This document shows, piece by piece, positions 24,540 to 53,790 of a stretch of 64,000 bases of DNA. The position numbers were made by a program, and so were the translations under genes. The notes under the pieces are model-generated. The model was not told the origin of the DNA and made no database searches. It worked only from the letters and a program-made list of their open reading frames with translations. Source of the DNA: Botryllus schlosseri (Eukaryota); NCBI GenBank assembly GCA_051294905.1, contig CM119375.1, forward strand, positions 19,530,001 to 19,594,000. The letters are read 5' to 3'. Position 1 is the stretch's first letter; each line of letters opens with the position of its first letter.

Positions 24540-24878
24540 TAGGGCTGAGCACAATGATTCGAGTACTCGAATCTGAATCGAGTATTATTTTTAATGATTC
24601 GAGTCGAGTAGTAAAAGACCATTTTTTCGACTACTGAAATTATACGCTCTGAGCAACTGAAAGTTAATTTACTAACGAAAATTATAGTTTTGGTACTATT
24701 TTCCGCTGATGAAGCCTTGAAACATTGATTAGCTGTGCCGCAGCATACGACATATAGTACAGAGCTACGAACGTTACAGGAAATAACACATTTCCGAAGT
24801 CATGATCATCCCACAATATTGTCAAAAAGTGCAATGAAATTGGAATGGTCGAAAAAATACTAAAGTATCTTTGGTACT
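24540..24878 (-). mobile_element. MITE family A copy truncated by the giant retroelement insertion
   Basis: Reverse complement of ~340 bp of the 8672-9185 copy; homology stops at gtatctttggtact|tgtga; ~170 bp missing. Confidence 0.85.
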
Positions 24879-25083
24879 TGTGAAATAAGTGCCCGGAGGT
24901 CTAGGCGGCAATAGTTGTTGCACCATAAAATGGGTGTGTAGGAGGATAGTAAGTGTTTTGCATGTACATTGAAATGAGGGTGAAAAAATCGTTAGGTCTG
25001 ATAAGGAACAAGTGAAAAAAATAACCCTGTCATAGGAATAACACGGGATTAAAATAGGAGAGAGTCAGTACACAAAAAACGCC

Positions 25084-25097
25084 AAGAAAAAGGGGGG
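25084..25097 (+). other. Candidate polypurine tract
   Basis: aagaaaaagggggg followed by TT then TG (25100), resembling a retroviral PPT-NN-TG junction. Confidence 0.4.
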
Positions 25098-25184
25098 TTT
25101 GATCCGCTAAAGACGATGGGGAGTTGATCGACACCACATGTCGTATTATTTACTTGCGCAGATACGCGGAAAAGAACATACAAT

Positions 25185-26111
25185 GTGTTGAGTTTGGTCG
25201 AATCGGGTGCATTGCTAAACACACGGGATTGTGTGAAATTTCTGAGAAATCACGGGTTGTTGGTGCGAAGGATGAAATGCAAGCGATGTAAAAAAATAAT
25301 GAAAGAGGAAATTACGTCAACAGGCGATGATGGATTTAGGTGGCGATGCAACCCCTGTGACACTACGGCGACTATACGGAAACACTCGATATTCGCGGGA
25401 AGCAAGGTAGAACTTCCCAAATTATTAATATTGTTCTACTTTTGGTCCCATGACGCGTTGCAAACCCAAATTTCGCATGAAGCTGAGATTAGCCCACGTT
25501 CAACGGTTACCTGGTGCGGCAAATTGCGAAAGCTTTGTACGGCCGAATTTCACAGGAACAAGCGACGTTTGGGAAAGGAAGGCGGTTGCGTAATTATTGA
25601 TGAAACGCACTTAGCCAAGCGCCGGGCTGCCTCTGGTAAAGGACCAGCTGTTAAAGCCATTTGGGGGTTTGGAGGAATAGACAAAGCCACCGGAGAAATG
25701 TTCATTGAAATAACTTCTGACAGAACTGCTGAAGTATTTCGAAAACTCATAGTAGAAAATGTGACAGAGGGGTCCACAATTCTAACCGATGCTTATCCTT
25801 CCTACAAGGGCATAGAGAGCTGGGGGAAGGGTTATATACACGGCGTAGTGGACCACTCCCGATGGTTTAAAGATCCCCGGACAGCTTTTTGTACTAATGA
25901 AATCGAGGGGGCCTGGGGACAGCTTAAATATCACTTACATAGGTCTCGTGGTTTAGCACGTCACCTTTTAGCCGATTACGTAGGGGAGTTTTTGTGGAAA
26001 CGTCAACATCAAAAGACTGACCGATTCTTGGCACTCCTGCGCACCATACACAATGATCCACGGTATAATTTTGACAAATTTGATGGGTCTCCTGTATTAC
26101 CACATTTGTAA
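25185..26111 (+). CDS. Merlin/IS1595 (ISXO2-like) DDE transposase #1
   Basis: CxxC..CxxC Zn ribbon, IIDET / LTDAYPSY / NEIEGAW catalytic triad; no in-frame ATG at the 5' end, splice acceptor at 25160-61. Confidence 0.9.
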   Translation: MLSLVESGALLNTRDCVKFLRNHGLLVRRMKCKRCKKIMKEEITSTGDDGFRWRCNPCDTTATIRKHSIFAGSKVELPKLLILFYFWSHDALQTQISHEAEISPRSTVTWCGKLRKLCTAEFHRNKRRLGKEGGCVIIDETHLAKRRAASGKGPAVKAIWGFGGIDKATGEMFIEITSDRTAEVFRKLIVENVTEGSTILTDAYPSYKGIESWGKGYIHGVVDHSRWFKDPRTAFCTNEIEGAWGQLKYHLHRSRGLARHLLADYVGEFLWKRQHQKTDRFLALLRTIHNDPRYNFDKFDGSPVLPHL

Positions 26112-26240
26112 ACCCCGTTTTAAGGTTCCAGGACGGAAATGACGACATCTGTTGTTTTGTGTTTTTACAGACGGTAGTCTAGGTCTAGTGCGCGATTATA
26201 TTTAGTTTATGACGTGGCGAGAACCACCACTGTCTGTACC

Positions 26241-28757
26241 ATGGACATCCTTCCTTATTCTCTGTCTATCCTTGTTGGTATCATTTGTACGTCTGATTTG
26301 GTGCTGCATACGGCGGCGAAAGGCATGCACGGACTTGCAGATCCTGTAACAAGCAGGGCACGGTCTTTCACTCAGGGGACGCTAGGGGAACTACGGGGAC
26401 CCCTGCCTGAAGAATGGATCACTCTAAATGATACACAATGGGAGGACTATCACTTGATGAGCATTTTCAACAAAACGGCGGAGCGACATGTATATAGACG
26501 GCCTGAACTATTTTACAGCAAGTCATTTGGTTACGTAGTAGCTGAGCGTTTTTCATTACAACAAATGGCGTTTCCACATGGAAGATATTGGACAAGTGTA
26601 CAAGATTTTGAACGCACCTGTCTCTGTCAACGGCGCCTGGGCCAAATCACGCCCAATATTTCCTATGATGTTCTTAAACAAACAAACATGTTCATACGTC
26701 CAATAGGGTATTATAGGATTCGCTGGTTCTGGAGTGGGGACTATTACTGGTATCATGACCTTGGCAGAAATTACTCCATGTTTGCTCTAACCAAATTTAA
26801 ATTGATTATGATACGACTATTCGAAAGTTATTCAGCTGTTGAAGCCTCATGTCTTCAAGAGCCAATGAGAGACGGGGACAAAGAAAAATTAAGTGAATTA
26901 AATAAGTATAATGCCAGTAGCAATAGTTTTACACAATGCTGGCATCTAGTGGATAAAGATTATGCCTCCCATAGTGTTTTTTGGCAACAATACCACTCTT
27001 GGAGGGTAAAAGGGGTCAGAAAAGGAATCTGTACCAGGTGTAATTTTAGAGGAGTGATTTCTGCTCTGGAACCAAATAAGGCAGATATAATCATCCAAGA
27101 AATAGTAATGACTACAATAAGTACATGGCCGTATATGCGCGATAAGTTCATTCCATGCCGGGCCCAGGGGGGATGGATTAATCAGTACTGGTTTGAGCAC
27201 TTCTGGCCTGATGGTGGTGTAATAGCCCATTCGTGCAATTTCTGGCCAGGAATGAATACCACTATATGGGGTGATCTACCAACGACAAATTTTCCTCCCA
27301 GAGTAAAATGGATACAACCGTCTTTTCCAAATTTGGATCACAGTGTGTATGCTAATCGTGGCAATCAGGGCATGAGGTGGAATAACCTTTTTGATGGTGC
27401 GCCGACTAGGTTTAAGGCGTCTACATCAACATGGGTACCTTTTCCCAGGCCTATGTGGAAATTCTTCCCCTCTCTTACTGCATCGGATGAAGCATGTAAA
27501 AATAGAATATCACATAACCAGGATTTGTGCCGCGACCCTGTAGGAGGACGCATTTTGAAGGCAGCCTTTTGGGACCATGTTCATTTTGATCCGGAGCTAA
27601 ACCGACCACGCTTCCCAGGGGGACCAATAGAAATTAAAGGTGAATTGGTATCAAGTAATACCGCCCCACGGGGTACGCGTAGAAGGCGTAAAAGGTTCCT
27701 GTCAGGACTGATATGTCTCGTTTTTGCTGCGATATCAGCGATCGCCGTCGTTGCGACAGTTTCATCCCAGTTACATGAAGAAACATTGGATCTTAGCCGA
27801 CAAATCAATAATAGAATGATACAAGCCACGCAGAGGTCCACTGCACTAGGGAGAAAGATTAACGAACTCTCTCTTCTGCAAATAGCCCAACAACAGAAAC
27901 TGGATCAAACGATCGCTACCATGGAAATGAGGACAACGTTAACAAATAAACGACTTGTACTAATGGAAAAGTACATAGAAAGAAACCGACAAATGATAGT
28001 ACGACAAGCCACAGCATCCCTGACCTCTTTTCAAAACTATAAGGAAATGAGCGAAGCTGAACTGGCCCTTGATCGATTGGTTTTGGACGAGTTGGCTAAT
28101 TTAACTGGCAAGTTAATATTCGACTCCAGCAAAGTATATCTCACAAAAATCCGACAAGGAACGCTGCGGATAAAAGAACACGCTCAGCAATTAATAGCCT
28201 ATAGAGACGCTTACATCAATGAGACGAATGACATTGGGGTAGAGCTACGTGCTAACCGAATCAGTCTAGATCAAGCCCAACAGAGTGTGGATTTGGGTTT
28301 ACAAGTTTGGAGAAAAGATCTAAATAAGAGTGTGTACATGAATATTTCTGATTGGCGATATGAGAATATTACAATTAAGCCTTTCGAATTTGTTGGAGGA
28401 GAAGAATTTATGAATAACTTGGGCCAAACGATAGAAGACATGACACACGGTGTAGGAAGCTTGATAAAATCAGTAGGAGATAGCACAGGAGATCTTCTAC
28501 AAGATGGATTAGGTGCGGTCGGAGGAATATTCAATAAGGGAGTGAGCGGAATTTTTTCCGGCCTGGGGTCTGTTCTAATTCCAGTAATTTTGATATTGGG
28601 GGCCGGGATCGTCTTGTTTTGTGGCTGTCGTTATAGCAGTCTTTGCTGTCCTAAGTTAAAAACTGAGGTACAACGGCGAAACACGAATACTCAGTTGACA
28701 ATGCACATATCATCGGTATCGACCCCCGTTAAAACAGCCAAATCGACAAGAATGTAG
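26241..28757 (+). CDS. env: Class I fusion envelope glycoprotein (Env1), 838 aa from ATG 26241
   Basis: Signal peptide; RRRRKR furin site (27678-27695) followed by hydrophobic FLSGLICLVFAAISAIAVVA; heptad-rich region; Gly-rich membrane-proximal segment; C-terminal TM; several NxS/T sites. Confidence 0.88.
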   Translation: MDILPYSLSILVGIICTSDLVLHTAAKGMHGLADPVTSRARSFTQGTLGELRGPLPEEWITLNDTQWEDYHLMSIFNKTAERHVYRRPELFYSKSFGYVVAERFSLQQMAFPHGRYWTSVQDFERTCLCQRRLGQITPNISYDVLKQTNMFIRPIGYYRIRWFWSGDYYWYHDLGRNYSMFALTKFKLIMIRLFESYSAVEASCLQEPMRDGDKEKLSELNKYNASSNSFTQCWHLVDKDYASHSVFWQQYHSWRVKGVRKGICTRCNFRGVISALEPNKADIIIQEIVMTTISTWPYMRDKFIPCRAQGGWINQYWFEHFWPDGGVIAHSCNFWPGMNTTIWGDLPTTNFPPRVKWIQPSFPNLDHSVYANRGNQGMRWNNLFDGAPTRFKASTSTWVPFPRPMWKFFPSLTASDEACKNRISHNQDLCRDPVGGRILKAAFWDHVHFDPELNRPRFPGGPIEIKGELVSSNTAPRGTRRRRKRFLSGLICLVFAAISAIAVVATVSSQLHEETLDLSRQINNRMIQATQRSTALGRKINELSLLQIAQQQKLDQTIATMEMRTTLTNKRLVLMEKYIERNRQMIVRQATASLTSFQNYKEMSEAELALDRLVLDELANLTGKLIFDSSKVYLTKIRQGTLRIKEHAQQLIAYRDAYINETNDIGVELRANRISLDQAQQSVDLGLQVWRKDLNKSVYMNISDWRYENITIKPFEFVGGEEFMNNLGQTIEDMTHGVGSLIKSVGDSTGDLLQDGLGAVGGIFNKGVSGIFSGLGSVLIPVILILGAGIVLFCGCRYSSLCCPKLKTEVQRRNTNTQLTMHISSVSTPVKTAKSTRM

Positions 28758-28844
28758 TGCACGCATATGTACTCAAAGGATTTTACTTTTATTAATTAAA
28801 AATTTTTCATAAGTCCACAGATATACTAACTAATTTATAATAAT

Positions 28845-31800
28845 ATGAATCGTTACCTTAAATTATGGATTGTGCTGGCAGTAGCCTTAACACTACACCG
28901 AGGATATCTTCAAACTCATGGCCAATTATTGCCCCTGTCTGCTATGAGTGTGAGGTTAACATTTAATCTTACAGGATGGACAACGTTCCGGTATCAAGGT
29001 CTCAGATACATCCGCCTTAATCGACTATTCAAATTGAACGAGAGTTGGCCAATAGGTGAAACGGAAAATAATTTTCCAATATACAAAGAGACGCCCAAAT
29101 TTGGTCCAACACGAGCTAGCCAAGATCAATTGTACAAGTTATTTGCACCCTCGGGGTCTGACAAGAGGTATTGGAACAATGTTAGACAATACGAAAGAGA
29201 GTGCGGGTGCAATCGGAAACTATCAAGAATATCTCCCGATATTACTTTGGCAGCCTTTACCAGAACCACAACATATCGTCGAAAGAATAACTTTGGCTTA
29301 GTACATACATGGAAGTATGTGGTAGGAAGGGAAGAACATGGCACTATGGCTGTGCCAGGTCCGATCCTTCGGATGATATCTCCTAATGCTACTCCACAAG
29401 TTACTATACATCAACTGTTGACGGTGTACAAGTTATCAGTGATGAATATCTTGGCACAATATGCAACAGTGACAGCAAGGTGTCAGCAGCGTTTCGAAGA
29501 AATCGCGGGATGGAGAGTCAATAAAGGCGAATTTAACGTATGTGTGCACGGAGAAGACAACCAGATGCAATGCATAGGATGCTCATTTTATACAGAGGAT
29601 CTGGCAGTAAATATACTGTCCAGAGACTTTGTGGTCATGGAAATAGATAATAGCATAAGAGGATTAGGGACGAGAATGCAAGAAACTTATTCCTACAGTC
29701 AATGGCCAGTGGGAGTCAAATTACCCAGATTACATCACGACATCGTGTGGTTGAAGGCTCGAAATGAGACGGGCCCCAGGGAGAGGCCAGCAAACTTTGA
29801 TGGTCATACTTGGTTTAGATTGAGGATTTACGCCCTCCGCGAACATCTGAATAATGATACTCAACGGATAATGGGGAAGAGAAATTTTCCGACTATGTTG
29901 CAAGGCAGCATAGAATGTGAACGTAAAAAAAATCAAAAGGTTTGTCGAAATTCAATAGGAAGTTTAAAGACGGCATTGGCCTTTAAGGAAGTGTTATATG
30001 ATCCATATACAAATCAACCCGTGTATGCAGATCATAGCAATGGTCGGTTACGAATTGCATCTCCAAAACCTGCAGGTCAGGAATCTCCCCTCAAAGCATG
30101 GCCTAAGAGTCTACCCAAGTGTAAACAACCCGGTAGATTAGGCGACTTTATCCTGACTGCATCATTTAAAAGCAATGGGCAAAATACAAGGAATATGGAC
30201 TATTATCTAGCTCGCCTAGGAATGTATTACGTAGAAGCAACAAAACGGCGGTTACGCCAGTTATCTTTGCCCATATATAAAATGCGGAGAAAACTGGGGA
30301 GATTGGACAGGTCCATAACTGGTGAAGAGATGGAGTCTCTAAGTCAGGCGCTACGGTCAGCCTTGACACCTCAGAAACTGAGTAGGATAAATGAAGAATT
30401 ACTGAGCTATATGTCAACACGCAAGCTCATAGAGGTGCAGTTTCATGATATCCGGATATTCCGACCAAGTGTGGCCTACACAGCCACAATATGTGCTGGA
30501 ATATTGGTGTATACGCCTTATGCCTATAAGGACAATAACAAAATCAGAACTAACTCTGAAATGTCATTAAGTACCGCGGAATCAATAACGACAAAGGCTG
30601 TAAATTATGAAGGAACCACTCGAAAAGTACCTTCTAGCTCCGTAATGCCACGAAGTAACGCGGAAGCAATAACGACAAGGACTGTAAGTTACGAAGGAAT
30701 CACTCGAGAAGTGCCTCCTAGTAGCGAGACTGGTATATGGGTTGATATCAATTCTGTTGTAGCGACTCCAGAACCCGCTGTGACACGGGAAAAAACCATA
30801 ACAATTACTGAGGAAAATGTAAGAATGACGAATCAATACGACACTAACCACTATAACTACGATTATATAGAAGGTTACGACGAAGGAATTAGCTATGCCG
30901 GTTATGACGATAATACTAGTTTTCAAGACGCTGGAAATTACTACTACGATTATTATGACAAAGACGGAGAATATAATGTTTTATTAAAACATAGGCCCAT
31001 ACAGATAGCTTATACTACGGATTCTACAAATATTATTGAAACTACAATGGCATTACCAATGATTGAAACTCCAACATCAATTAAAAATACTCAATATACG
31101 ACTGAGTTAACAACAGATACGACAATTTCCACGTCAAAAACGTCTGCACATACGTCAGATAGTATTACGACCACTTTATCCACTGCTGCAATCACACCAT
31201 ATACTGGAGGGTTGACATCGGCTATTGCTATTTCCGAAACGACTTCATCGACATCGCTCCCAGCCATATTGACTACTGTGCATTCCTCACGCGAAGATAA
31301 CACCGGCCCAAGACCAACTACATCTATTATTACATTCTTAACTACGGTGAAAACTGTTCGTGAGCAAGAAAGACGCAGGACGAGTCCCACTGATATTTTC
31401 ACAACTGTGGAACCATCTATGGCTATATCAACAGAGATGGACACTCAGAAAAGCATTGGTATTGCTACGACAGGAGTCACCTTTTCTGAAAGTGGGTTAA
31501 CAACACGTGTACCAATGGCGAGAAGTGTAAAAGCAAGGTTACAATGGAATACCATGACCTATCAAATACCCTCAAAAAATGGTGAAATGTTAGGCTCCTT
31601 ATCCGTGCCAATAAGGAAAACATCCCAAATTACGCAGATACCTGAGTCTTACATACAATTAAGTCATCACGCAAATCAAATCAAGGACACGACACCGCCA
31701 AGAGCGCATTTCAATATGTTGTTTGATACATCACAAGTAGCAACGACAGTTGAAACGCACCAATACTTCGTCACCAGCAAGTCCCGCTCTAATACAGAAC

Positions 31801-32327
31801 CAGATAATTTAAACAAAAAGCAAGATCTACAGGTAAGAACTAAATCAACGTCAATAATTTCATCAGGTGACTATCAGAGCGATCCCACATCAGTAAGTAA
31901 AAATGATGTGATCAGAAGTTGGAAGAGTACTTCCAATAGTGCACTTTCTTCAATTACACCCTCTATCGAAGAAGAAGGAAAAACTACACTCAGTATACCG
32001 CATACCTTACCTACGGCCAGATATGACAGATTGGACCGAATTACATTTGACTTCTATGGACGATTGCACAAACTACACGAAATAGAACAAGGATATGCAT
32101 CAGGTAAAATTATTGTGGATATTAACAATAGAAAGGATTTAGAAGAATCACTTAACAATTATGTCTTGATTTTTGCGGTTAGCGTAACAACAATGGTAGG
32201 ATGTATGTATTTTTGTTATGCGAAATGCGGGAGAGTTGCAGCAAAAAATTATCTTAAAAAGGTTGTTCGGCGGAATAACCAAAAGATGTATATTACAGCA
32301 GTAACATTGCATGAAAAACTGAGATAG
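28845..32327 (+). CDS. Second type I membrane glycoprotein (Env2): Env1-like ectodomain plus Thr/Ser mucin stalk, 1160 aa
   Basis: Signal peptide; motifs shared with the Env1 SU part; ~500-aa T/S-rich region; TM YVLIFAVSVTTMVGCMYFCY; basic tail. Confidence 0.85.
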   Translation: MNRYLKLWIVLAVALTLHRGYLQTHGQLLPLSAMSVRLTFNLTGWTTFRYQGLRYIRLNRLFKLNESWPIGETENNFPIYKETPKFGPTRASQDQLYKLFAPSGSDKRYWNNVRQYERECGCNRKLSRISPDITLAAFTRTTTYRRKNNFGLVHTWKYVVGREEHGTMAVPGPILRMISPNATPQVTIHQLLTVYKLSVMNILAQYATVTARCQQRFEEIAGWRVNKGEFNVCVHGEDNQMQCIGCSFYTEDLAVNILSRDFVVMEIDNSIRGLGTRMQETYSYSQWPVGVKLPRLHHDIVWLKARNETGPRERPANFDGHTWFRLRIYALREHLNNDTQRIMGKRNFPTMLQGSIECERKKNQKVCRNSIGSLKTALAFKEVLYDPYTNQPVYADHSNGRLRIASPKPAGQESPLKAWPKSLPKCKQPGRLGDFILTASFKSNGQNTRNMDYYLARLGMYYVEATKRRLRQLSLPIYKMRRKLGRLDRSITGEEMESLSQALRSALTPQKLSRINEELLSYMSTRKLIEVQFHDIRIFRPSVAYTATICAGILVYTPYAYKDNNKIRTNSEMSLSTAESITTKAVNYEGTTRKVPSSSVMPRSNAEAITTRTVSYEGITREVPPSSETGIWVDINSVVATPEPAVTREKTITITEENVRMTNQYDTNHYNYDYIEGYDEGISYAGYDDNTSFQDAGNYYYDYYDKDGEYNVLLKHRPIQIAYTTDSTNIIETTMALPMIETPTSIKNTQYTTELTTDTTISTSKTSAHTSDSITTTLSTAAITPYTGGLTSAIAISETTSSTSLPAILTTVHSSREDNTGPRPTTSIITFLTTVKTVREQERRRTSPTDIFTTVEPSMAISTEMDTQKSIGIATTGVTFSESGLTTRVPMARSVKARLQWNTMTYQIPSKNGEMLGSLSVPIRKTSQITQIPESYIQLSHHANQIKDTTPPRAHFNMLFDTSQVATTVETHQYFVTSKSRSNTEPDNLNKKQDLQVRTKSTSIISSGDYQSDPTSVSKNDVIRSWKSTSNSALSSITPSIEEEGKTTLSIPHTLPTARYDRLDRITFDFYGRLHKLHEIEQGYASGKIIVDINNRKDLEESLNNYVLIFAVSVTTMVGCMYFCYAKCGRVAAKNYLKKVVRRNNQKMYITAVTLHEKLR

Positions 32328-32631
32328 ATATTGTGAAAATAATTACTGAATTATTGTAAAGGCAGAAGTTAGGGTTGTTATGTGTTGTGTTGTGTTCGGC
32401 CCGTTTTCACGGATTAGAGTCCATGTGAAATTAACTATTAACCTAAATTTAACTCCGTTGAAATAACATAGTTTAAAAAAATCATGCTGTATTTGTTTAT
32501 GGAAGCCTAAAATTGTACGGAATTTGAGAATGTACGAGGCAAATTTGCGGTATTAACGATGATTATACAATGACTATTATTGCGAAATACATAATTGCGA
32601 AATTTTCGGATGGTATTGCTAAGCCAAATCG

Positions 32632-32766
32632 GGATTAAGTAATGCAGTAGTGAGTAAATATGGAAGCGTTAAAAATGGAAGGATTAAGTAATGCAGTAGT
32701 AAGTAAATATGGAAGCATTAAAAATGGAAGGATTAAGTAATGTAGTAGTAAGTAAATATGGAAGCA
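32632..32766. repeat. 49-bp tandem repeat, ~2.7 copies
   Basis: ggattaagtaatgcagtagt(g/a)agtaaatatggaagc(g/a)ttaaaaatggaa starting at 32632, 32681, 32730. Confidence 0.95.
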
Positions 32767-35700
32767 GGATGGCGTAATTTTTGTACATGTTGCGATGGCA
32801 TATTGACGAACAAGAAAATTTAATTTAGTAGAAACGGCAAAATACGACCCCAATTGAGGGGTTGATCACGCCATTGCAAAACTCTTGCACAATAAGGCCA
32901 CAACTAATGGTGGGAAAGGAAGCGCTACAGTGGGTAATTGACGAACAGGAAATATTTAACTGCAGCAAAATGGTGAAATTTGTCTGTAATGGGGGGCTTA
33001 ATCATGCCGGAGTACAAAGGATAGCGACAAAAATTTGCTTGATGAATGTTCGGAAGGATGCCAAAACCCCACTTTACGAAAATAGCAAATTGCTCGTGGT
33101 GATGGGAGGTGCATGCGCGTTAACGTTCTTCCGCTCAAAACTGGATAAAACGCGGAGCGCAGGAATGGAAAAATCAGTTGACTCCATACCAGACTGTAAG
33201 GTGTTAAGGGAGTTGAGTGCTGGTAGTCAGCTTATCCATATATAGGTTGACACCAGTATTGAGGTGACTCGGGTCGACTTCTTCGAGTGGTTTGACCTGG
33301 AGCGATTCGCTTATAGGGAACGAGTGACTTGGTTTGACTCGGGTCGCATTGAGAGTCGATTGACTTGGACTTGACTCGAGTCAGAATGTGTGTTAACTGG
33401 TAATGACTGGGGTATCGAAGGTCGTGCTTTTGTTCCAGCACTAGTTGACACTCAACAAGTTTTGGTATGTCAAGATAATAGACCTGAATATAACTTGGGT
33501 CATCACGTTACAGACTGCCAATCTAATATTGCCGCGTGGAAACTGTATCAGTTATACCAAATGTTACTAAAAGTAGAAGAACTAATGCTCACCTTTCCAT
33601 AAAGGGGAGAGAGAAAATCAACGTGGTACTTATAGCTATGATATGAGACTTATATTATAATCACTCGCTACATTGATATTCTTACTATACAAAATAAATT
33701 CTAAACACTCGGTACTAATTCAATATAAACGCTGGGGTCCAACGGTTAGAATGATTAGGATTGCATGGGATAGCATGACATACGGGTATAGGCGTAAAGT
33801 ATACTACGAAATAGAATCACGACACGCCAAGATAATCCCTGTTAAGGACGTTTGAAAATACAATCATTTGAAGTAAATAATGATAGTAGATCTGGAATTT
33901 TAAGGTTTATAGTATCAGCCTGCTGTCGACGCGTTTTGATACTGTAGTTGTTCTTTACATAACTTAAATATAACAGTATTGGGTAACATAAGCGCCAATT
34001 TATGAGATTGCAAGGTGGCGGCCACCTCGTACAAAATGCTCAAACGCTAAAGTGATTTGTAATTAGTAATTAGTAATCAGGCGAATCGATGCGACCTCGT
34101 TAGAGACGTCTTCGATTTCGATACGCGCGTGTGCCAGGCGCGTAACCACGGGGATTTTGGGGTCGAACTTGCCTATTTGAAACGCGAAACCCCGTCATTT
34201 TGAAATGATCATTGGAAATCTAATATTTAGCTACAATTCAATAATTGTGTAATCAGTGTTCCGCGCGGCGGGTTTGCGAGAAACGAGTTGTCAATTAGCG
34301 AGAGGAAGCTGTGATTATCTCCCGCTGAGATGGTCGCGAAATTAGGTCATTCATTCCTGTGCGCGTGGAAAACTTCGCAAGCCTGATTTATCGCGTCTAG
34401 ATAAAGCCTGGTTTCGCAGGCCTAACAATCACATCTGCAATGGGCCCAGTTCACACTATATCATCGTTTGACTGCGCAATCACATATGCATTGGCGGCTT
34501 CGGCCTGGTGTGCACGATTTCATCGCTGACTCACACAATAGCATCTGCAATAGGCCTGGAGTGAAAGATTATTGCTGGCCTATGGCCTGACTATAGCGTC
34601 TCGAGCCTAACATGCTTCGGCTCCTATCTCTCGCGGGTCTGGCGACAATGCGGTCGGGTGTACGCTAATTAGTGATGGTATTATCTCATATTGCTTAAAA
34701 GGTGACATCGCGAAACTGAATAACATTGAATGATTCGAATGGAGGCAAACATTAACATGAGAAATTGATATCCACTAATATTGGAGCGTAATGATCAAAA
34801 GATGTGTGTCAGTACCATGTCTCGAGTTCTGGAATACGGCAAAGGTTTGAAATCCATCAAGTTAGGACATTCCCCGAATTTTTCCACTGACTACGCACCC
34901 AGCGTGGGCTGAGAAGCACCATCCTAGATCTCCTCTCCCGACCAGGAGCGCTAATATACGTTATGCTTTTCTGAAATCTAAATTATGTGCGCCCATATTC
35001 GTTTACAAAACTAGCTACTAGATACATTCGTACTTCGAAATTGTTGCACAAAGTCCTTTTTTGAGTGTTCCTTTCATTATTAACGTGATGCAGCACAGGA
35101 TTATTGGTCATAGTAGCACAAATTCTGATATTATTCGATTCGTTCGAACAGGGAACCTTCTACATTCCGATAAAATTGATTGCTGGATGAACTCGTTTCC
35201 AGAACAATATTATCGAATATTTACCCATTAGAGATTAAATAGACAATGGATTTCTATTGGTAAGATCGCGACATGCGGCTGGGAGTGGAATCAATCCTAG
35301 CCCAGGGGTGGCTAACACGCGACCGTAGAAAGAGATTTGTGCGGCCGTCAACACGTAGTTCAATTGGTATGCGTTGGCGGCCAACCCGGCCATCGACACG
35401 CAGATGGAATTTGCGAATTGACCGATGTACTCCCGAAATGCCTCGTGAACTTAAATTGGGAAATGCACCAATGTTTTAATCATCAAACAATTGCCGTGAT
35501 GCGAGTAGGTCAAAACGATGCAGAGACAATGACTGATTGCACGGCTGCGCGATTTCGCGTTTGTAATCGTCATTATTGTCAGCTGGAAGTATTATAGCGT
35601 TGTCGTGTGTTGCCTGCCAAGCCATGCGTAGTGTATTTCGTTACTCACACGGGGCATTGCGCGTGAACAGCGTTGATGTAACTGGAGATTCGTCGGACGG

Positions 35701-38700
35701 ACTGGTAGCGCAGGCCGCGGTTACACTTCAAATGATCGCACCGTTTTGAGATTCCATTTAATAACTCGACTGCATGGTTTGATATTAATGAGTGCAGAGC
35801 CGATATTAAAACGTCACGCGAATGGTTCAACTCTGCACGTACACCAGCGGTATGCAGTAAATTGTGGTTTCATATGACGAATGCAGCAATTATGACGTTA
35901 CAAGAATTCGCCGCCTCGTAAAAAAATAAAAGTTGGAGTCTATGTTGGGTAGTATGAGTAACTGCTGTAAAAAGTGGTAATTTCAATCAGCAATAGCACA
36001 ATCACCAACCTATTAAGTATCAGAGCTGCCTCACATTATGTACTGTGCACTGCGCAGGGTTGACAATAGCAGTTAGACTACAAGAAATGCCGATTATCTT
36101 TGTATTGGGCGCTACTGTGCATGAGTCCATGGTCTCTCGAGTCATTGGCCTTGAGCAACTGGATAATATCTGAGTTGATTCGGCATACCTGTTTATGAAT
36201 TGAATTTAATTCGGAGTAAAATTAGTGAGCCAATTTCAAGTCATCAAATAATCAAATGCAGACAAAGATTGTGGTATATAGCATATGTTTGGATTTTTCA
36301 CGCAAAGTTTATGGGATACATAAAAAGCGACCAATCTTTCAATGATAATGCATTTTATTGGGCATCCATCTGACATGTCACAAATATACTGGTCGCGGGT
36401 TAAGAAGTCGAAGTTTGCAGCCAATGCCATCATAAGCTATAAGTGTTTTATTTATTTTTGGCGGATATGATAAATTAAGAACGGTGCGTTTGCTTAAATG
36501 ACTTAAGTTACTTGTATGCAAGCAATACAGCGTATTATTTGTGGACTTATTTAACTCAATATATCTTCATCGGTTAGATACCGATGACCGCCCGATATGT
36601 ATTGCAGAAGACTAGTAAAGTATAATGATATAATCACGTCTTGTGACTAATAAAATCAATTCAATTCCAACCTTAGCTTGATTTGAGTCACTTTCACTAA
36701 TCAGTTGACTTGACTCGGCTTGATCGAAGGATGCGGTGACTCGAAGTGACTCATGACTCGAATGTTGCAGTGCTGGGATCGAGACGCGACCGATCGGTAT
36801 TTTGAATCAAAAAGTTTTTTTGATTTCTAAAATGGAAAGTGTTTCGACCCGGGCCGGCTGAGTCGCTCCAATTGTTGCATTCACTACATTGTGGCATTTA
36901 TTTACGTCAAGCAGGGAATACCGCTTCAGGAAATCTGATCTATCGCATAAATGGCTAACTTAAAACATGTCTTCCAACTGTAGGTACTTTATAACAACTA
37001 ACTAGACCAGTAAGTTGAGTTTACGACGAAAATAAATAAATCGCGATATTGTGACTAGGCGGAGTACAGTATTATATATGAGACAACATTATACATATAC
37101 CTACCTCGGTGATAACGGATTGTAGGTTTGGGGTGATCCCATTCTGGTACATCCATATGTATATTCCATGGGAAAGGTACGCGCTTTGCAACCTCTGGTA
37201 TATCTCAAGAATTACATATATCCCGGTTGAGGGACACTAACCTACAAGTTCCAGAAATTAACTGTACTTATACACACAACTGGCCTCACCGATCCAAACT
37301 TAAACCATGTGGCAAAGCAATCCAACAAGCGTTAGCCGCAACGAAGACGAGTAGCATGGATAGCTTCCTGTACTGTCAAAATTATATTAAGCTACGAGCC
37401 GTATAATACTGAATAATAACAATTCTACTCAAGACGCAAAGTGATTGATTTCCTTCAAAGCTTTTAAGCTACTGAGGCTAAAATATTGGAATTGTTCTCG
37501 AAGTTTTCTTAGGAAAAGTATTGCTGATATGGACATGGTAACTAAAATTGTGTGACAGGAGCCATCCCAATTAATGGTTCCTTCTAGAATACCTGACAGG
37601 ATGGAACGTTATTTGGGGTGATTCTAGTCATGCGCATTCGTATATATGAATAATAAGGGAATATAACAAAATCGAGGTTAGTTCGAGTCATGGTACATTC
37701 TCATTGACACAATAATGACCTGTATACTGAACATTATCTTTTTTTGTAACTAGGGCTAGCTCAAACGCTGATTATAAGAACTCGGCGACCTTATATAAGA
37801 ATTTAAAAATAACTGCGACGAGAATGATGAGATTGAAGTTGGTATTAATATTATTGTTTCTAATTTCAAAACAACCTATCCGCACATTCTCGACAATACT
37901 ATTTAGTACTTGACAATTCTGACATTAGATTTAATTTGCAAAACGCGCAAGTTCATCTTGGTGTATAAGCTTTAAGAAGTATCGTTGGCCGCTGTATACA
38001 GTCTATTGTCGTCTCAAATGCATAGGTGATACTGAATTAAAAAATAGATAGTCTGAACAAAACCGATCAATTTCGATATGAAAGCTAGTTTAATCTTTCG
38101 CGCACCCCTTTTGGTACTGCGGTTCTAATTTACTATGACTGATACATTGCGTATTACTAATGTAAGGAAAGAAACAGTGTTGGGAGGACTCGAGTCGATT
38201 GGAAAATATGTATTGACTCGTGTCTCGAAGAGGAATTTATAAGTTAATATCAAGTCACAAAATAAACGGTGTCAAATAAATCACTGTAGCTTGCGTATAC
38301 TCGAATTGTTGTGTTAAGTCATAAATGAATTAACCGCAAATGAAACGATCATGGCTGACGCTGCCGTGGTAATTATAGAGGACTATTGTGAATAACAACA
38401 TTTTTCTGTCTCATTAGACGACTCAATATTTACGTTGTGCAGGGCGTATCTTTCTATATTTTGGTTGACAATGCCTGACTGTAGTATTTAGCCTTACAAT
38501 TACTCACGTATTCTACTTGCGCGTGACTGATACAGTATCTGGGTGCATGTATAGTTATTTGCATATTTGACAGCTAATTCAATATAGATGCTGAAATCCG
38601 GTTGAATTGAATTGAACCCAACATGGGTGCAAGGTATTGTCTCAAAAAGGCCTGTGCTGAAGTAGTATGTTCCTCAAAAATTAATAATATTTTTGAAAAC

Positions 38701-41700
38701 CAAACAAAACCGTTGGTTTATCGCCGACGAGTAAATAAACAGGTGAAATATCTATCTCAATCGAAGGGTATAAAGTATCACACTAAGGTAACATAATACC
38801 ACGTTGCTCGCTCTCCTATGTTCTAGCTCACGCTGAACCATAAACCTACATTTGCGAAAGCTGGTCTTCAGTTCATTGTATTACGGATTTGGTACATCCC
38901 TGTAAATACCGTTCGAAGGTTACCATATATTGCAAGTTTTGATATATCTCATATTAAGCAGTAACTCCGTTTGAAGAATTCTGGTCTATAATTTCAAAAC
39001 TAAATTGTGCTTTTGCGGACAACTCAGGTCATCCTAGCTAAAATCTGATGCAACTATACGACGCCAAGCATGCAATGGAGCAATGCCTAGCCGTATTGAG
39101 TGACTTCCTGAAATGGACTAACTCCCATTGCAGTGTGAGGCGAATATTATTGATTACTAACAATTGTGTACGTCATAACACAAAAGGGCTATAAAATTGT
39201 AAATCTACTGTAAGCCATGACAAACTTCGGCTTTGATAGATCGCACTGTTTTCAAATCCTTCTTGCGTACTGGATTACTAAAACAGGAAAAAATGTGCTT
39301 GCTCGTGCCCTATTGGAAATGTCCATTTCAAAACTAGTGTGTTGGAGATCTCTACAATATCTCTTCTACTACTAGTGTGTTCTAAGTGTTTGGACATGAT
39401 TAAAATTCACTAGAAATTGTCGTGCGGGTATGGTAATTTGGGTAATGATAGCTGCCTCCGCCAACCGGTCTCTCCAAAATATTTGAAACGATGGAACAAT
39501 TGCTTGAGGCAGTTATAGGATTTTTTGCGCTAGTCACCTTGTGATTAAATTAATCTAGGAGCACTAAGCTGAAATAGATGAGAATGTTATTTTCTCATAT
39601 CACGCCTCAAATGTCAGGAAGTTACAAGTAAGTGAAATTAAGAGCAAGGTATCGGGTTTGCGCCAGTAATAGTGGTGGGCAAACTAATTAGGTAGTCTTA
39701 AAAATAAATGTAAATTTGGCCAGATTTAAAAATACCCAAGCGAGTAGGTAGATTACAAAACATTACTACGAGAAACTTGGGTAGTGATAGATGTTTGTTT
39801 TCGATAATAGCCATTAGCATGTATGTAGCACAGGTATTTTATTTAAAAGTAACTATTGTTGCGAGTCGGCATTTACAAAAGTAAGTTTTGCGTATTGGAG
39901 ACGGCGCATGAATTGTAGATAATTCAGCAGCGTAAACGCTAGTTTGTTAGTGTTGAGCAGTAATGCGAAGTTTGTAGTATCAAAGAACAAACAAAAGATA
40001 TGATAATTAAGGAAAGCCATTGATTTCTGAGGGTAGCAAGATTTGCATTTTGGGATTATAGTTTGCAGAAGTAATTATTTGGGACAGATTGGGTGCGAAA
40101 AGATAGTTTATTGATAATGTATCAACAATAGTGACCTAGTAATCTAGAGTACAATTACATAACAATATACAGTGGTGTAGTATGAAGCAGCGCGTGTTGG
40201 TTTTTGCATTTTCTATGAATAAGGCTGAGAATGGTCGGTGGGACCTTGCTAATTTGAGTGACTACAGGATAATTTGAATTGTTGCATTTGGCAGCAAGAC
40301 TATGCGAATTGGGAAATAAGTTTACAAATTAAAGTAAGTAAAGGAGTGATATTGAATTAGTGGATTGTAGGCGCCACCACGCGGCTGGTTTGAGCCAAGC
40401 AAGAATGAATGTAATCAAAATGGCGTAAAATCGTGCTTGGAAAATGGCGCATGACCTGCTACCACTTAATTTATGTCACTTTTAGCCTTGATATCAAGGT
40501 TGGTAAATGAATGAGCGCTTAAGGTAATATCCAAGTTAGATTGAATCAGTAAACGTGAGAGAAATTGTGGTACAGCCCGTAGCTTTTTACGCAGTGCTCA
40601 TGTTGGCAATGGACCAAGAACAAGAATTGTTGATGTATGAATGACGTAACTCATTGATTAGAAGATTCAGACAGCTAAATATCTAGAATTATACAGTAAC
40701 TAATTAGCTAAGTAGTAAGCGCATATCTAGTTAGTACTTTCTTGATTTGCGTGCCACACAGAGGATCACGAACCAAAAATTAGGCCTGATTTTTAGAATT
40801 TTTCGCGTTAACAATGATCAAACATGTCCATCTGAATCTGATTATGATTTATTACGCAAATTCGGAATTGATAACAAAAAAAGAATGGCATGCCCCATGC
40901 ACTGAGGCTATATCTCATATACCGGCGGTTCATGATTATAAGGAAGTAAACCGAGTTTAGAATGTAGGTTGATGACTTGGTATCTGAAGGAGGCATGAGT
41001 TATAGTTTCATTAAGGGTGTATTAGAGATGGAATACAGGCCATACGACAATTAAAATAACATAGTCATACTCCATGTATGTATTTAAGAAAATTAGAGTT
41101 GGGGTAAGATAGCACGAACTTGGTGATGAAGTGTTGGACATAGTAATAACGGTACTGAATGAGGGCTATGAACTGAGCAATAAAGGCATAGATCCCTATA
41201 ATTTGATATTAACACCGAAAGATAGGTGCGTTAGGTAAGCGATGACCCGTCACAAAGATCTGGTATTTAATGGCCAATTGGTACAATTGTTTGACAATAA
41301 AAGAACTTGTAATAGATCAGAAGGTCGCAGCTTGGTATTTCGCTAACCAAGCAAGTATGGTTATGAAAACCATTGGCATTCTGTTAGTTACATCTTTGGT
41401 CGCTAAATCATGTTATTAGGGCCACTTAAAGGTACCGAGTACTGTAGTGGTACGCTCCAACGATGTAACAGCAATAGGACGTCCGGCGTTCCCACATTTC
41501 AATCACTAGGACACATTCATTAATATATTTATATTATATTTATATTTTTTTTCTGCTCCTATATTTGAAGATATTTGGCCATGAGATTAATAGCCTACTT
41601 CTCAAAAGTATACCCGAATCGTGATTGGAATTACAATGATCAGATCAGACTCTGTTATCGGTCTGTTGGATCCAAAATATTCATAGTAGCTGAAAATTAT

Positions 41701-42433
41701 AATGTAATGGCTTTTATGATGGCATCATACGTTTGTCCGCTCATATGGTGTCTATATCTTATAGTTAATTTATGTCAAGTACAACAACAATTCTATTCAA
41801 ATAGTTATAAATATGATGATTCTTTTCGTGCCAGGCCTAAATTTATACAAATCTAAATCATATTTTGGCGATGTGTGGTTACTGTCAGTCTGTTGGATCG
41901 ACTCACTCTCAATAGAAAAATTCATTCCCGCCAAATAAGGCCTACTTGGAAAGACATAGAATACCCCTATAAATGCTGCGGCCCGCGGCGTCGTCCCAAC
42001 TAGGAGAATGGCCCGCAAGCACGTTTGAGTTTGAGACCCCTGTGCTAGATGAAGAAACAGGACACAAAATTGGTACAATCACCTACAATTTTAATTCACC
42101 TGATTATAATTGATAGAAGGTTCTCACTTTGAGCGAGGCCTTATATAAAATACGGATAATGTAGCAGTAAAGATGAACATCGAGATTGATTTAGGATAAT
42201 GGATATCATGGTTATATCCTAGTGTGGCGCATGTAAAAAAAGGGTGATGAATCAAAATAAGACGAATAGCATGATCACTGCGTATTGTGGTGTGAACTCG
42301 CTAAGAAAAAAGAAAGATTCCTGTGGCATTCTTGGAAAATTTATGACACATAGACCTATTACATTTCCACAGACTTGGTATATATAGGGTCAAAAAAACA
42401 GCAATACATCTCTTTGCTGGTATAACTGTAGCC

Positions 42434-42955
42434 ATGACAAGTTCTGATGCCATGGAAGCCTCTGTTCTGGATGAACAAATCTGGACTGGAAGGTGGATTG
42501 TTGTATTAAAAAATATAGATGAAATTCTCAAATCATGCCAAACATCGCCTGAAGCAGATGAAAATGAGGAAAATGAACAAGAAATTGACGAGGCCACTTT
42601 GGAAAGCTATTTTGAAAGAAACCCTTCGATCTGGGGAGATGATACGGACTCGGAATTAGATCTCACTGACTCAGATGAAAGTTCGAGTATTTTGTCTGGC
42701 TCCGGATATGATTCTGGACATGATTGGATAGAGTCCTATCTTTTCCCAGACCACGAGTTGAGAACTTATCCGAATTCCGAATCTAGTGATTTGACAGATT
42801 CGAATGAAAGTTTGAATACTCTACCCGATACTGACTCTGGTGTTAGTAGTAGCGATTCCGATCCATCCTCAGATCATGAACAGTTACGACCTCTTGACGA
42901 GGCAACTCTCAGGCGCCTTGATAGAATGTTTTGGCGCCCCTGGAATAACGAGTAA
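42434..42955 (+). CDS. Acidic Ser/Asp-rich protein with sub-terminal WRPW motif
   Basis: 173-aa ORF; ends RMFWRPWNNE; acceptor tttccacag at 42364-72. Confidence 0.65.
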   Translation: MTSSDAMEASVLDEQIWTGRWIVVLKNIDEILKSCQTSPEADENEENEQEIDEATLESYFERNPSIWGDDTDSELDLTDSDESSSILSGSGYDSGHDWIESYLFPDHELRTYPNSESSDLTDSNESLNTLPDTDSGVSSSDSDPSSDHEQLRPLDEATLRRLDRMFWRPWNNE

Positions 42956-44097
42956 AATTGGAAAACTATGTGATCAAAATGTATAAATTGATGTGATCAG
43001 AAAAATCGTAAATGTACATTAATTACGTTGCGACTGTTACAAGAGATGTTGTGTTTTCTGTGCCTCATAGTGAAACAATTAAATACTGAGGACGACTGTG
43101 TTGTCGTTTGAAAAAGGGAATTTTTGTGTAACCATGGAATAATGACAGGTTATTTGGCAGATGTTAAGAGAGAGAGAACAATTAGGATGGTATGTGATAC
43201 AAAATAAAAGTTTGAATTAGTCAAGGCTGGGCAATCTTTTTCAGCCCGAAGGTCACATTCGATTGACGAAATACTGTGCATGCCACTACCGCGCGAAGCG
43301 CGAAAAGCTTTTGAAGTTCATAGAACAATGATATTATAACTTGGCATTGTTGCGGGCTTACCGTACACCGTTAGGCTGAGTTTACGCGGACCAGGCTATG
43401 TGGCGCATGGCCATAGTAATAACAAAAGCCAACATGCGTCAATCTTTCCGTATCTGGGTTTCATAGTCAGCAATATTACCGCAAACGCAAACGCAAGGTC
43501 ACACATGTTCAACGACACCTTGGTCCGAAATCGCGAGTATAGTTAGGCTCAGTCTGAATAAATTGGCCGTTTTTCCATGGTCATAAGATGGGCAACAGTA
43601 TTAAAAACAAGGAATCGTGTGGCAAAATATTGTGTTTAGCTTGTGAAAATTTTGTTTTTGATGTATCTGGTGCAAATTATTCTGCTTGATGGTAGTGTAT
43701 AAAAATATACCATTATGTGACTGGCTGATGGATCTGCCAATACGTAGGAATAGATATTTTAGTCATCACATCCAAACAAATATAAATTTTGCTCGACCTT
43801 GCAAGTTCCCAATCAGTGCAATCCATTCTAGATATTGGCAATTTCGGAAATTACCTCGGGGGCCACGAATTGGCCGGCCCTGAGTTGAGGAAATCAAGAA
43901 TTGTTAGGCTGACAAATGGCCAAAGATAACACTTTTCTTCACCCGGTAAAGGAATAATTAACCCCAAATAAGATTAATAAAGAGTTAGCACGATTCAGTG
44001 TTTTGAATATCATTAACGATATCTTACAATAATCTCGACTTAAAGAAACATTATTATTTTTAAGGTGTAAAAATAACGCGGTGTCGTAAATTAAAGA

Positions 44098-44616
44098 ATG
44101 TCTGCCTCAATAACTAAAGAACAATTATGGGAGCTATCTATTGAAAATATCGAACTATGGTATGAGGAACTTCGCGGGGTAAAAAAGACAGAAAGATTAC
44201 AACGATGGAATAATTTTTTCGAGGACATTAAAAATGGAACTAGACGTTATGCAGAAATCTTCTTCGAAGGAATGAGAGCGAGTAATGAAAAGGTCAAAGA
44301 ATGGCCATGGCGAAATGACTATCGTAGAAAACACTTGAGAAATCGCAAGGTAGCAAAAGTAAAACCATATTTGCTAATAAAAACTGCCTCAAACAAACAG
44401 AATCGGAATACAGAGATACGAGCAAGCTCTTCGACATCGACAAGTAATACTCCCTTGACGTCCTCTCTGACACCATCTACTACAAACAATGATGCACCGC
44501 CTAATAACAATGTCACGTCAAATGAAACTTATGCATCTTTTGGTAGTATAATGTTTTCGCAACAATCATCCTTTAATCAGCCTCAACCTACAACATCGCA
44601 TCACGTTAACGAATAA
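44098..44616 (+). CDS. Hypothetical protein (charged N-half, S/T/N-rich tail)
   Basis: 172-aa ATG ORF followed by AATAAA. Confidence 0.65.
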   Translation: MSASITKEQLWELSIENIELWYEELRGVKKTERLQRWNNFFEDIKNGTRRYAEIFFEGMRASNEKVKEWPWRNDYRRKHLRNRKVAKVKPYLLIKTASNKQNRNTEIRASSSTSTSNTPLTSSLTPSTTNNDAPPNNNVTSNETYASFGSIMFSQQSSFNQPQPTTSHHVNE

Positions 44617-44776
44617 TGAAAAATATTCAGTGGAATGATGTGAATATTATCAATTATATGGAGTGAATATATGGTGAATAAAAGCTAGTTTATTAACTTG
44701 TGCCTAAAGGATATTATGAATGACGAGGGATTATCTTGTTTTAAGTTGATAAATAGTGAACTAGTTAAAGAAAGAA

Positions 44777-45637
44777 ATGTGCCACGGGCTATTGTGCAAC
44801 CCTAATACGGATCATAAGGTTGTCCACGAGTGGGCGATGCAGTTCGATGTTATACATAGGCAGCAGATGGTAATGGAAATCATAAAAACTGCGCCGGTAC
44901 GGGATCGGTTGATGAGCATCTTGTTCGGCACCTGTGAGCGAGACAATCCAAGGGTACAATATTGGCAACAGTGTATGTACACCAAGGAGGACTGGACAAA
45001 AACAGGAAAGCCTTTTCAACCGGTTGGGAGCGGTGAATGTAAACAATGTTACCTAATGAAGTACGTAAGACCGTATTTCAAGAATACCGGGCAGATTTTG
45101 GACCTTATGACATTGTGCCATGACTATTTAAAAGAAGCTTGTAGTATGCACAAAGGACTAGATCAAAACACCGAAAGAGATAAAGGACATATAGTGCTTT
45201 ATGTGTTATATCCAGAAGCGATAATAACCGCTATAGCTCTCATGTTGCAACAATATCGGGGGGCAAAAAACATACGAACATTTTGTTTTACGAGATGTCG
45301 GATGGATGCAGAATTTGAGTTCCTATTTGGGGGAAATTTTGAACAATGGAGGTTTACATACGGGTCCACGAGCACGTTTGGTTTTGTGGGAGGCGTTTTT
45401 ATTCTACCGATTGACCAAGTGTCGGAATCAACCTTTAAAAGCTCGTTAAAAAAAGAGGGAGACAAACAATTAGTCAAAAACACCAATTCGGAAACTACAT
45501 TGATGTTTGATATTGAATCTTCAACCAGTGGAGACAGTAGGTTTCCAAACAGACCAGAGGCTCCGACCCGAATGGTAGTTTTACGGAGACCCAGTGTAGA
45601 TGGATCACATGCTGCCTCTAGTGGTAATATGGGCTGA
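44777..45637 (+). CDS. Hypothetical protein, family X (paralog of 48832-49338)
   Basis: 286 aa; MCHGLLC, NPRVQYWQQ, LYVLYPEAII. Confidence 0.75.
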   Translation: MCHGLLCNPNTDHKVVHEWAMQFDVIHRQQMVMEIIKTAPVRDRLMSILFGTCERDNPRVQYWQQCMYTKEDWTKTGKPFQPVGSGECKQCYLMKYVRPYFKNTGQILDLMTLCHDYLKEACSMHKGLDQNTERDKGHIVLYVLYPEAIITAIALMLQQYRGAKNIRTFCFTRCRMDAEFEFLFGGNFEQWRFTYGSTSTFGFVGGVFILPIDQVSESTFKSSLKKEGDKQLVKNTNSETTLMFDIESSTSGDSRFPNRPEAPTRMVVLRRPSVDGSHAASSGNMG

Positions 45638-46967: not shown

Positions 46968-47591
46968 TTGTCATATCCTGAAAACGGTAAATTGTGCGAA
47001 ATTGCTATTTTGTTTGAAAAAAGAATGCTAGATTTTGATTATATTGAAGGTTACGATTCAACAAATTGGTGTCATTTGTACGATGTATATGACGAGTTGG
47101 ATCTATTGAATCTTAAAGAATATAACAGCGAATATGAGAGATACCAGTTTAAAGAAAAAGTATGGGAATTGCTTACGGACCAAGCCGATTGGGTTAAACA
47201 AACAGACGATGGCCTAGAAGAGGTAGCCCTAGATGAGGAATTAACCGAAGAAATTCTTGATAAATTCAACCATGTGGCAGAAGAGATATTTGAAATAAGA
47301 GCAAAGGAATACACCTCTTTGGGAAGAAGAGTCATGTTGTATGAATTAATTAGAGGACTTGTGATGAAACTTACAAACACTAATATAACAAAGGACGTGT
47401 ACCAGGAGAGAGAAATTTGTAAAGATCCGCCACATATGGAACAATGGAATTGTCAGAATAATTTGGGCCTAAAAGGCTATTCAAGTTCAATACATTGGCG
47501 AACAAAAAGGATAAGACGTATAGAAATACATCCTTACCCCTACGAAGGGGAAAGTGTGAACATTGACTCTATAATACCGGAACAATCATGA
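46968..47591 (+). CDS. Hypothetical protein, family Y (paralog of 50610-51269); start uncertain
   Basis: RVMLYELIRGLVM and WNCQNNLGLKGY; TTG start in track, upstream ATG (46954) is out of frame. Confidence 0.72.
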   Translation: MSYPENGKLCEIAILFEKRMLDFDYIEGYDSTNWCHLYDVYDELDLLNLKEYNSEYERYQFKEKVWELLTDQADWVKQTDDGLEEVALDEELTEEILDKFNHVAEEIFEIRAKEYTSLGRRVMLYELIRGLVMKLTNTNITKDVYQEREICKDPPHMEQWNCQNNLGLKGYSSSIHWRTKRIRRIEIHPYPYEGESVNIDSIIPEQS

Positions 47592-53785: not shown

Positions 53786-53790
53786 GAGGA

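Follow-up and report, generated by a model that had tools for sequence, protein, structure and literature searches.

The window, by which we mean the whole stretch of 64,000 nucleotides of Botryllus schlosseri DNA analysed here, holds on its forward strand most of a single element of 39,763 bp, whose extent (24873..64000, continuing for 635 nt past the window) was defined by comparison of copies. Read along the + strand, the element comprises a transposase gene (Tnp1), env1, env2, about 9 kb without long open reading frames (ORFs), a group of accessory genes, gag and pol. The env1 product (26241..28757, +) has a signal-like N-terminus, a polybasic site at 480, a hydrophobic stretch, long helices and a C-terminal transmembrane segment, and env2 (28845..32327, +), a paralogue of the env1 N-terminal domain, has a Ser/Thr-rich stalk and likewise a C-terminal transmembrane segment. 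Both are termed env-like by architecture only; env1 gave no significant family, fold or PDB-profile match, and the predicted folds are of low confidence (pLDDT 36 and 38). The region without long ORFs (33246..42433) varies between copies and includes pieces resembling high-copy host repeats, and in the non-coding sequence at 33300-44000 segments resemble very high-copy host repeats and content differs strongly among copies.

The accessory genes (42434..56543, +) encode an LRR protein, a BIR-RING IAP, a ubiquitin E2 and unnamed paralogous ORFs. Two sets of the latter, of four and two members respectively (53330-56543 and 47025-51269), are under purifying selection and have no Pfam match over cut-off; a 70-nt segment at 55974-56043, which is 79% similar to what lies immediately upstream of the leader copy described below, precedes the last accessory ORF. 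Tnp2 (49412..50356, +), a second IS1595-type transposase identified by Pfam, is 38% identical to Tnp1 and corresponds to the second homologue that an earlier note on this DNA had placed 24 kb away. Relative to 17/17 sisters, in which the gene has its own ATG, the 5' start of the window copy is out of frame; the catalytic triad is intact in all 17 copies covering the gene and dN/dS is 0.14. Tnp2, which was not found in most sister families, could contribute to transposition.

The gag gene (58006..60822, +) carries late-domain-like motifs and a CCHC knuckle scoring 20.5 bits, just below the cut-off of 20.8. In the -1 frame relative to gag, across a conserved A-rich heptamer, pol (60753..64000, +, with its stop at extended coordinate 64368) encodes a protease, recognised by motif only, a spacer, reverse transcriptase (RT), RNase H and a Tpt1/KptA domain. 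The suggested check for an intact integrase returned none in pol, which closes with PF01885 (Tpt1) and stops 267 nt from the element end. The RH and GHT motifs of this 2'-phosphotransferase-like domain (63900-64000 and beyond) are invariant, the domain is kept even by non-autonomous copies that have lost RT and RNase H, and no case of a retroelement with a Tpt1/KptA domain was found in the literature searched. Pfam matches of the element ORFs included no movement protein, herpesvirus core gene or piggyBac transposase and, among 21 ORFs, no tyrosine recombinase; an Rfam search gave no match.

Selection was estimated as dN/dS pooled over pairs among 18 copies, i.e. the window copy and 17 others that are 86-98.8% identical to it, with a codon bootstrap computed; the copies are mosaics and the pairs are not independent. 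Values were 0.05 for RT, 0.04 for RNase H, 0.18 for gag, 0.22 for env1, 0.10-0.34 for the accessory genes and 0.83 for the pol spacer.

The transposase gene Tnp1

Tnp1 (25162..26111, +), the gene flagged by the earlier note, is encoded in an open frame at 25128-26111 (+) and was identified from Pfam, motifs and copy alignment as a Zn-ribbon plus DDE transposase of Merlin/IS1595 type. Its match to Pfam DDE_Tnp_IS1595 (E 9e-10) is over cut-off, its NCBIfam score of 63.8 bits lies below that model's cut-off of 75, and its neighbours in Atlas are mainly eukaryotic ISXO2-like transposases. The description of the transposase as intact is borne out by the open frame, the Pfam match and the CxxC..CxxC and D-D-E motifs, which are intact in 18/18 copies compared; a stop is present in 4/18 copies, and the catalytic triad is invariant. 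The CxxC pair gives no match to Pfam Zn_Tnp_IS1595, a bacterial domain absent from the Merlins described in the available text of PMC8101967. The flagged start at 25185 is a GTG, 312 nt from the sharp element end at 24873 (estimated earlier as about 300 bp), and the first in-frame ATG is at 25272.

Tnp1 adjoins the left end in every full-length copy examined, at least 31 genomic places match from 24873 through Tnp1 with flanks that differ, and the gene is found also in sister families, down to 38-43% identity. The proposed comparison of dN/dS across copies yielded 0.11-0.12 (pooled pairwise, window copy and 17 others), indicating purifying selection and, with the constant position, upholding the view of Tnp1 as a resident gene; on the sequence evidence, it is best described as the resident transposase of a 39.8-kb element. 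As for the roles that had been suggested, DNA binding only is unlikely, since the catalytic triad is invariant, whilst an alternative integration route is supported by a pol that lacks integrase and by Merlin-type ends with 8-bp duplications, and is the only route seen. The statement that the gene runs into an env1 splice acceptor stood in part: an acceptor-like AG at 26169-26170, 58 nt past the Tnp1 stop, is invariant in 18/18 copies, but no splicing at it was seen in reads.

Element termini and target-site duplication

Alignment of copies placed the left terminus, an imperfect 22-bp inverted repeat beginning GG, at 24873..24894 (+), and the right terminus, which ends in CC, at extended coordinate 64635 (G000:C5:19594635). 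The inverted ends (GG..CC) match at 16/22 positions, and the left copy of an 8-bp target-site duplication (TSD; 24865..24872) is repeated as the identical 8 letters after the right end. A search for perfect terminal inverted repeats (TIRs) had given no ends because the TIR is imperfect. The earlier report of no TIR or TSD therefore applies to the ORF, around which there is none, but not to the element, which is flanked by both, and the proposal that TIRs and a TSD flanking the ORF would betray a nested insertion was pitched at the wrong scale, as these surround the whole retroelement. A second motif resembling the left terminus lies about 133 nt inside, and is found also in families B and C.

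In family A, a TSD was present in 22/24 paired copies (17/17 in a first set and 5/7 further pairs); the first set contained 16 insertions with 8 bp and one with 9 bp (n = 17 paired), 3/20 left-end loci having no right end with which they could be paired. An 8-bp duplication and GG..CC ends were likewise present in 8/8 sister-family copies (one each of B, D, E, F and G, and three of C). For one copy, the empty site was present in 4/4 runs, from four studies, in both reads and contigs, so that this insertion is either polymorphic or excised. Within the element there is no long direct repeat of the kind expected of paired LTRs, and each end matches only like ends. The criteria applied for Merlin/IS1595 were the DDE_Tnp_IS1595 domain with its triad, an 8- or 9-bp TSD, a terminal 5'-GG and a TIR of 24-462 bp; the first three features are all present here, and the TIR, at about 22 bp, is shorter and more imperfect than most described. 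According to the available text of PMC8101967, Merlin elements have 5'-GG ends and 8- or 9-bp TSDs, and one family has highly imperfect TIRs. The insertion target is a high-copy host repeat (24540-24872, with the remaining half after the right end), which recurs in the window at 8672-9185 and 12403-12632.

Marks of reverse transcription

A single U3-R-U5-PBS block is located mid-element, upstream of gag. It begins with a putative U3-like segment (57243..57437, +), delimited by a homology boundary, whose motif is in tandem in families B and C; there follow a single 24-nt DNA copy of the host spliced leader (57438..57461, +), the candidate 5' end of the copied RNA, and, about 240 nt downstream of this block, a primer-binding site (PBS; 57680..57699, +) complementary over 20 nt to the 3' end plus CCA of host tRNA-Ile(AAT). 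A polypurine tract at 25084..25097 (+), exact in 12/18 copies, is a candidate plus-strand primer. The assignment to tRNA-Ile(AAT) refers to 4/6 loci examined that are that tRNA gene; primer type varies by family, with a match to tRNA-Thr(AGT) in B, C2 and D (1/8 loci examined being that gene). Seventeen nucleotides of the PBS are invariant in the 24 sequences retrieved by that motif, after which the sequence is highly variable, and also in 18/18 aligned copies. Beyond the PBS the haplotype count per 8 columns reaches 10 (17 copies; median 3), as it also does at 57234-57238 and 57266, and the window copy differs from its 98.8% identical sister at three adjacent columns of the PBS edge and at each of the two leader junctions.

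The leader block occurs once per window and 236 times in the genome. It is retained by A, B, C, C2, E, F, G and H among the families, and was not seen in the D copy. The base 5' of the leader copy is most commonly G (23/41), and its boundary gives the top four-gamete incompatibility among 59 adjacent windows. In run X23, 655 reads start at the leader block, with an end that we take to be the template-switch oligo, and continue into mixed sequences; they were considered as evidence of the element's transcription start and rejected, because the mixed sequences after the block and the 236 genomic copies identify them as host leader-spliced mRNAs. Replacement of the outron by a spliced leader is described in the available text of PMC3074122. 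The leader copy, with its variable junctions, appears to mark the 5' end of a copied RNA, and from this copy, together with a tRNA-Ile primer site bearing copy-to-copy scars, we infer that reverse transcription is ongoing.

Two further observations concern this block. After the leader (57461-57462) the window copy lacks 7 nt ending AG that are present in 16/16 aligned sisters, which resembles re-trans-splicing at the next AG, and a second, partial leader is present in two copies from sister families. In a short copy (G000:C4), a 25-kb internal deletion ends at the PBS 5' edge, as a reverse-transcription error would.

Gene order and a predicted Gag-Tnp1 splice

The N-terminal helix of Tnp1 ahead of the first ATG is conserved (dN/dS 0.23), and no conserved in-frame start for it exists at the left end. 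A predicted phase-1 splice acceptor (25150..25161, +) occupies a codon position shared by families A, B, C, C2, D and E, and a predicted phase-1 donor at gag codon 744 (60233..60241, +), identical over 9 nt in these six families, is the best-scoring of five candidates conserved in family A. In families F and G, Tnp1 has its own ATG and the gag donor is weaker. Donor conservation by itself is modest evidence for the splice, since 2/354 codon triples are identical against about 0.5 expected (background 9-13% identity per codon). An ATG with a donor at the left end was considered as Tnp1 exon 1 and rejected, there being a stop in frame and the ATG not being conserved (5/18 copies not anchored).

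In the window copy the donor sits 35 kb downstream of the Tnp1 acceptor, so that in family A the predicted Gag-Tnp1 product could arise only from an RNA crossing the junction of the element's ends. Families C and C2 have the order gag-pol-Tnp1-env1-env2, followed by the same right-end motif, and 7/51 Tnp matches are of this order; Tnp1 is in frame after the pol stop in 2/3 family C copies read, and a left end of family C2 was not found. This arrangement would represent retroviral order with Tnp1 in the integrase slot, the circle of genes being unchanged and the end junction moved, and the integrated copy is best read as a circularly permuted form of a genome of retroviral order. To begin at the leader and terminate in that same block, an RNA has to cross from right end to left end.

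The right-end/left-end junction itself gave two pattern matches in the genome against seven for a control, i.e. chance level, and was absent from the 15 of 127 read joints that were listed; 68 junction-pattern matches in viral contigs were discarded as showing no homology. No Gag-Tnp1 splice was seen in reads or in the DNA sequences compared. Linkage of the two ends (r2 0.14 and 0.12, against an adjacent-window mean of 0.21, range 0.09-0.48, in 18 copies) is no higher than between distant sites and does not support a model of adjacent ends; along the element linkage is U-shaped, falling to 0.107 at 16-24 kb and rising to 0.149 at 32-36 kb. Transcription is low, with a sense-biased depth of 0.3-1.7 over Tnp1-env in X23 and little in X22 and X24; expression was taken from 3-6% of each run, the initial read mapping being dominated by host repeats. 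An AATAAA near the right end was dismissed as a poly(A) signal, as it is not conserved; purine richness there is.

Related families, host Merlins and outside relatives

Sister families with RT 59-93% identical to that of the element each have a transposase. Counting 69/129 Tnp matches (Tnp2 copies and fragments left out) and 71/87 RT matches, all 51 Tnp matches of at least 55% identity have a same-strand RT within 90 kb, which in 50/51 is their own; an RT is nearby in 8/10 at 38-43% identity and in 0/8 ordinary Merlins at 32-33%. Conversely, 60/71 RTs are accompanied by a transposase. Tnp1 branching broadly follows that of RT (F and G deep, E and C2 next) and differs in the crown, the transposase tree being midpoint-rooted and the RT tree a quick version. 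The phylogeny with host Merlins that had been called for separates the element transposases from three host Merlins with 100/100 support. Host Merlins have different, long TIRs, and ordinary copies carry near-perfect inverted repeats of more than 750 bp. TSD-flanked copies of B, D, E, F and G have a single transposase, in the Tnp1 position. Family H, with the deepest RT (42-46%), has no transposase in 3/3 loci examined; its leader, gag and Tpt1 are present and its gene order is rearranged. A non-autonomous family of about 10-14 kb (e.g. G000:C1:748741-758853) retains both ends, leader, PBS, part of gag, protease and Tpt1, and has no RT or RNase H, nor, in the stretches examined, Tnp or env.

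Outside the host, the closest pol relatives have rve in 0/12 and Tpt1 in 4/12 cases (several fragmentary), and the nearest RTs belong mostly to integrase-bearing Gypsy-like pols. Viral contigs contained no RT relative; one related marine metagenome contig has gag and pol only. The best PDB match for RT is 8r0s_A ('Enzymatic polyprotein', 75 bits), presumably a caulimovirus RT.

Discussion

We consider it probable that Tnp1 takes the place of integrase in an element that is copied by reverse transcription and integrates from a DNA circle. In the cycle proposed, genomic RNA would begin at the trans-spliced leader, run through PBS, gag and pol and across the right-end/left-end junction, then cover Tnp1, env1, env2 and the accessory genes and terminate in the same R segment. 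As in pararetroviruses, tRNA-primed reverse transcription would yield a circle carrying a single LTR-like block; Tnp1 would open this circle at the joined ends and insert it, giving a chromosomal copy that is, like a prophage, a circular permutation. The enzyme would be produced as a Gag(1-743)-Tnp1 splice product, in family A only on junction-crossing RNA, and excision back to the circle would restart the cycle. That Tnp1 acts as the integrase on reverse-transcribed circular DNA is likely as a prediction from the sequences, and cell-to-cell spread by putative Env particles is possible. More tentatively, and with slightly less than even confidence, we propose that these elements form a temperate, enveloped lineage of reverse-transcribing animal viruses with a pararetrovirus-like circle, integrated and excised by a Merlin DDE transposase that is made as a Gag fusion through a splice broken by integration, such that the provirus would silence its own integrase until circularised.

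Merlin-type end features, the failure to observe a junction and the loose linkage of the ends would also suit a giant cut-and-paste Merlin DNA transposon with retroviral genes as cargo, whose insertions come from DNA and in which the part played by reverse transcription would not go beyond renewing some of the element through cDNA recombination; the order in family C could be obtained by three deletions in a head-to-tail dimer. We nevertheless judge this unlikely: among the genes, constraint is strongest on RT and RNase H, PBS and leader scars in near-identical copies require both strand transfers, by which U3-like DNA from upstream is joined to the 5' end of the RNA, Tnp1 lacks a conserved in-frame start at the left end, and non-autonomous copies retain ends, leader, PBS, gag and protease. 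The scars and the selection argue against purely DNA cut-and-paste movement. A less probable variant accepts reverse transcription and insertion by Tnp1 and derives the junction from RT jumping between read-through RNAs, e.g. at the 8-bp duplication, with no excised circle as template. It accounts for the scars and the weak linkage, and in one run sense reads accumulate near the right end, but extra jumps on very short homology would be required and, barring trans-splicing, no pre-mRNA would exist for the predicted gag-to-Tnp1 splice in family A.

The enzyme could in principle be Tnp2 or a host Merlin transposase, with Tnp1 only binding DNA or being spare. The intact triad of Tnp2, its own ATG in sisters and its low dN/dS are compatible with such a role, which is however very improbable, given the invariant Tnp1 triad, the single transposase at the Tnp1 position in the TSD-flanked B, D, E, F and G copies examined, and the 32-33% identity and different long TIRs of host Merlins. 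That a Merlin simply inserted itself within one retroelement copy can hardly be entertained, and is refuted by the recurrence of Tnp1 in the same position at 31 or more loci and in sister families (38-43% identity) and by a TIR and TSD that surround the whole unit and not the ORF.

Returning to a reverse-transcribed circle inserted by Tnp1, a parallel in replication is offered by Caulimoviridae, which replicate through a circle with terminally redundant RNA. The element shares with them gag-like, protease, RT and RNase H functions and the lack of integrase, besides its predicted circle and terminally redundant RNA; it differs in its animal host, env-like genes, its own integration enzyme and the lack of any movement protein found, and the RT tree contains no named caulimovirid. 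Absence of integrase from Caulimoviridae is noted in the available text of PMC12440569. With DIRS/YR elements, as portrayed in the available portions of PMC3266345 and PMC12440569, it has in common an LTR-type RT without DDE integrase and integration from a circle at a junction, the circle being predicted in the present case; those elements have a tyrosine recombinase, no TSD and no protease, unlike the element with its DDE transposase, 8-bp TSD, protease motif, tRNA PBS and env-like genes. Teratorn (piggyBac-alloherpesvirus) is similarly a virus-like genome integrated by a TIR transposase, with excision to a circle proposed, so far as the accessible text of PMC10175614 and PMC6431247 goes, but combines a DNA herpesvirus with piggyBac where the element combines reverse transcription with Merlin.

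Ty3/Gypsy elements (Metaviridae) and the giant Burro, as treated in the accessible part of PMC6431247, resemble it in gag-CCHC, PR-RT-RNase H, a -1 frameshift, a PBS, and env-like and anti-apoptotic cargo; unlike Ty3/Gypsy, the element has no integrase, paired LTRs or TG..CA, has an 8-bp TSD rather than one of 4-6 bp, and carries Tpt1 at the end of pol. Troyka, another aquatic-animal retroelement with unusual termini that occurs in stolidobranch ascidians, has integrase, LTRs, CG..CG ends, a 3-bp TSD and no env in the available account (PMC12440569). With Merlin/IS1595 the element shares the DDE_Tnp_IS1595 domain with its triad, the 5'-GG and the 8- or 9-bp TSD, whereas its 40 kb, two transposases, gag/pol/env, PBS, RT scars, ~22-bp TIR and CxxC pair set it apart from Merlins as described in the available text of PMC8101967. 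The element departs in a defining feature from each of Gypsy, DIRS, Teratorn and Troyka; to judge from sequence, its ends and enzyme are Merlin and its copying machinery is Gypsy-like. No description of such a combination, or of a life cycle that joins copying by RT to integration by a Merlin transposase, was found in the literature searched, with Repbase and most subscription journals outside the scope.

Class I and class II elements are divided by how they move, and this element appears to copy itself by reverse transcription and to insert with a cut-and-paste transposase. If so, LTR-type RT elements would have a third way of integrating, besides integrase and tyrosine recombinase, the integrase-less pararetroviruses would have an animal counterpart, and a chordate would be host to a switch of prophage type; the chemistry of Merlin transposase at joined ends would also become accessible. 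With its length of about 40 kb the element tests how large an RNA can be copied by RT, and since its copies are young and polymorphic and have intact genes, sequencing alone could test each step.
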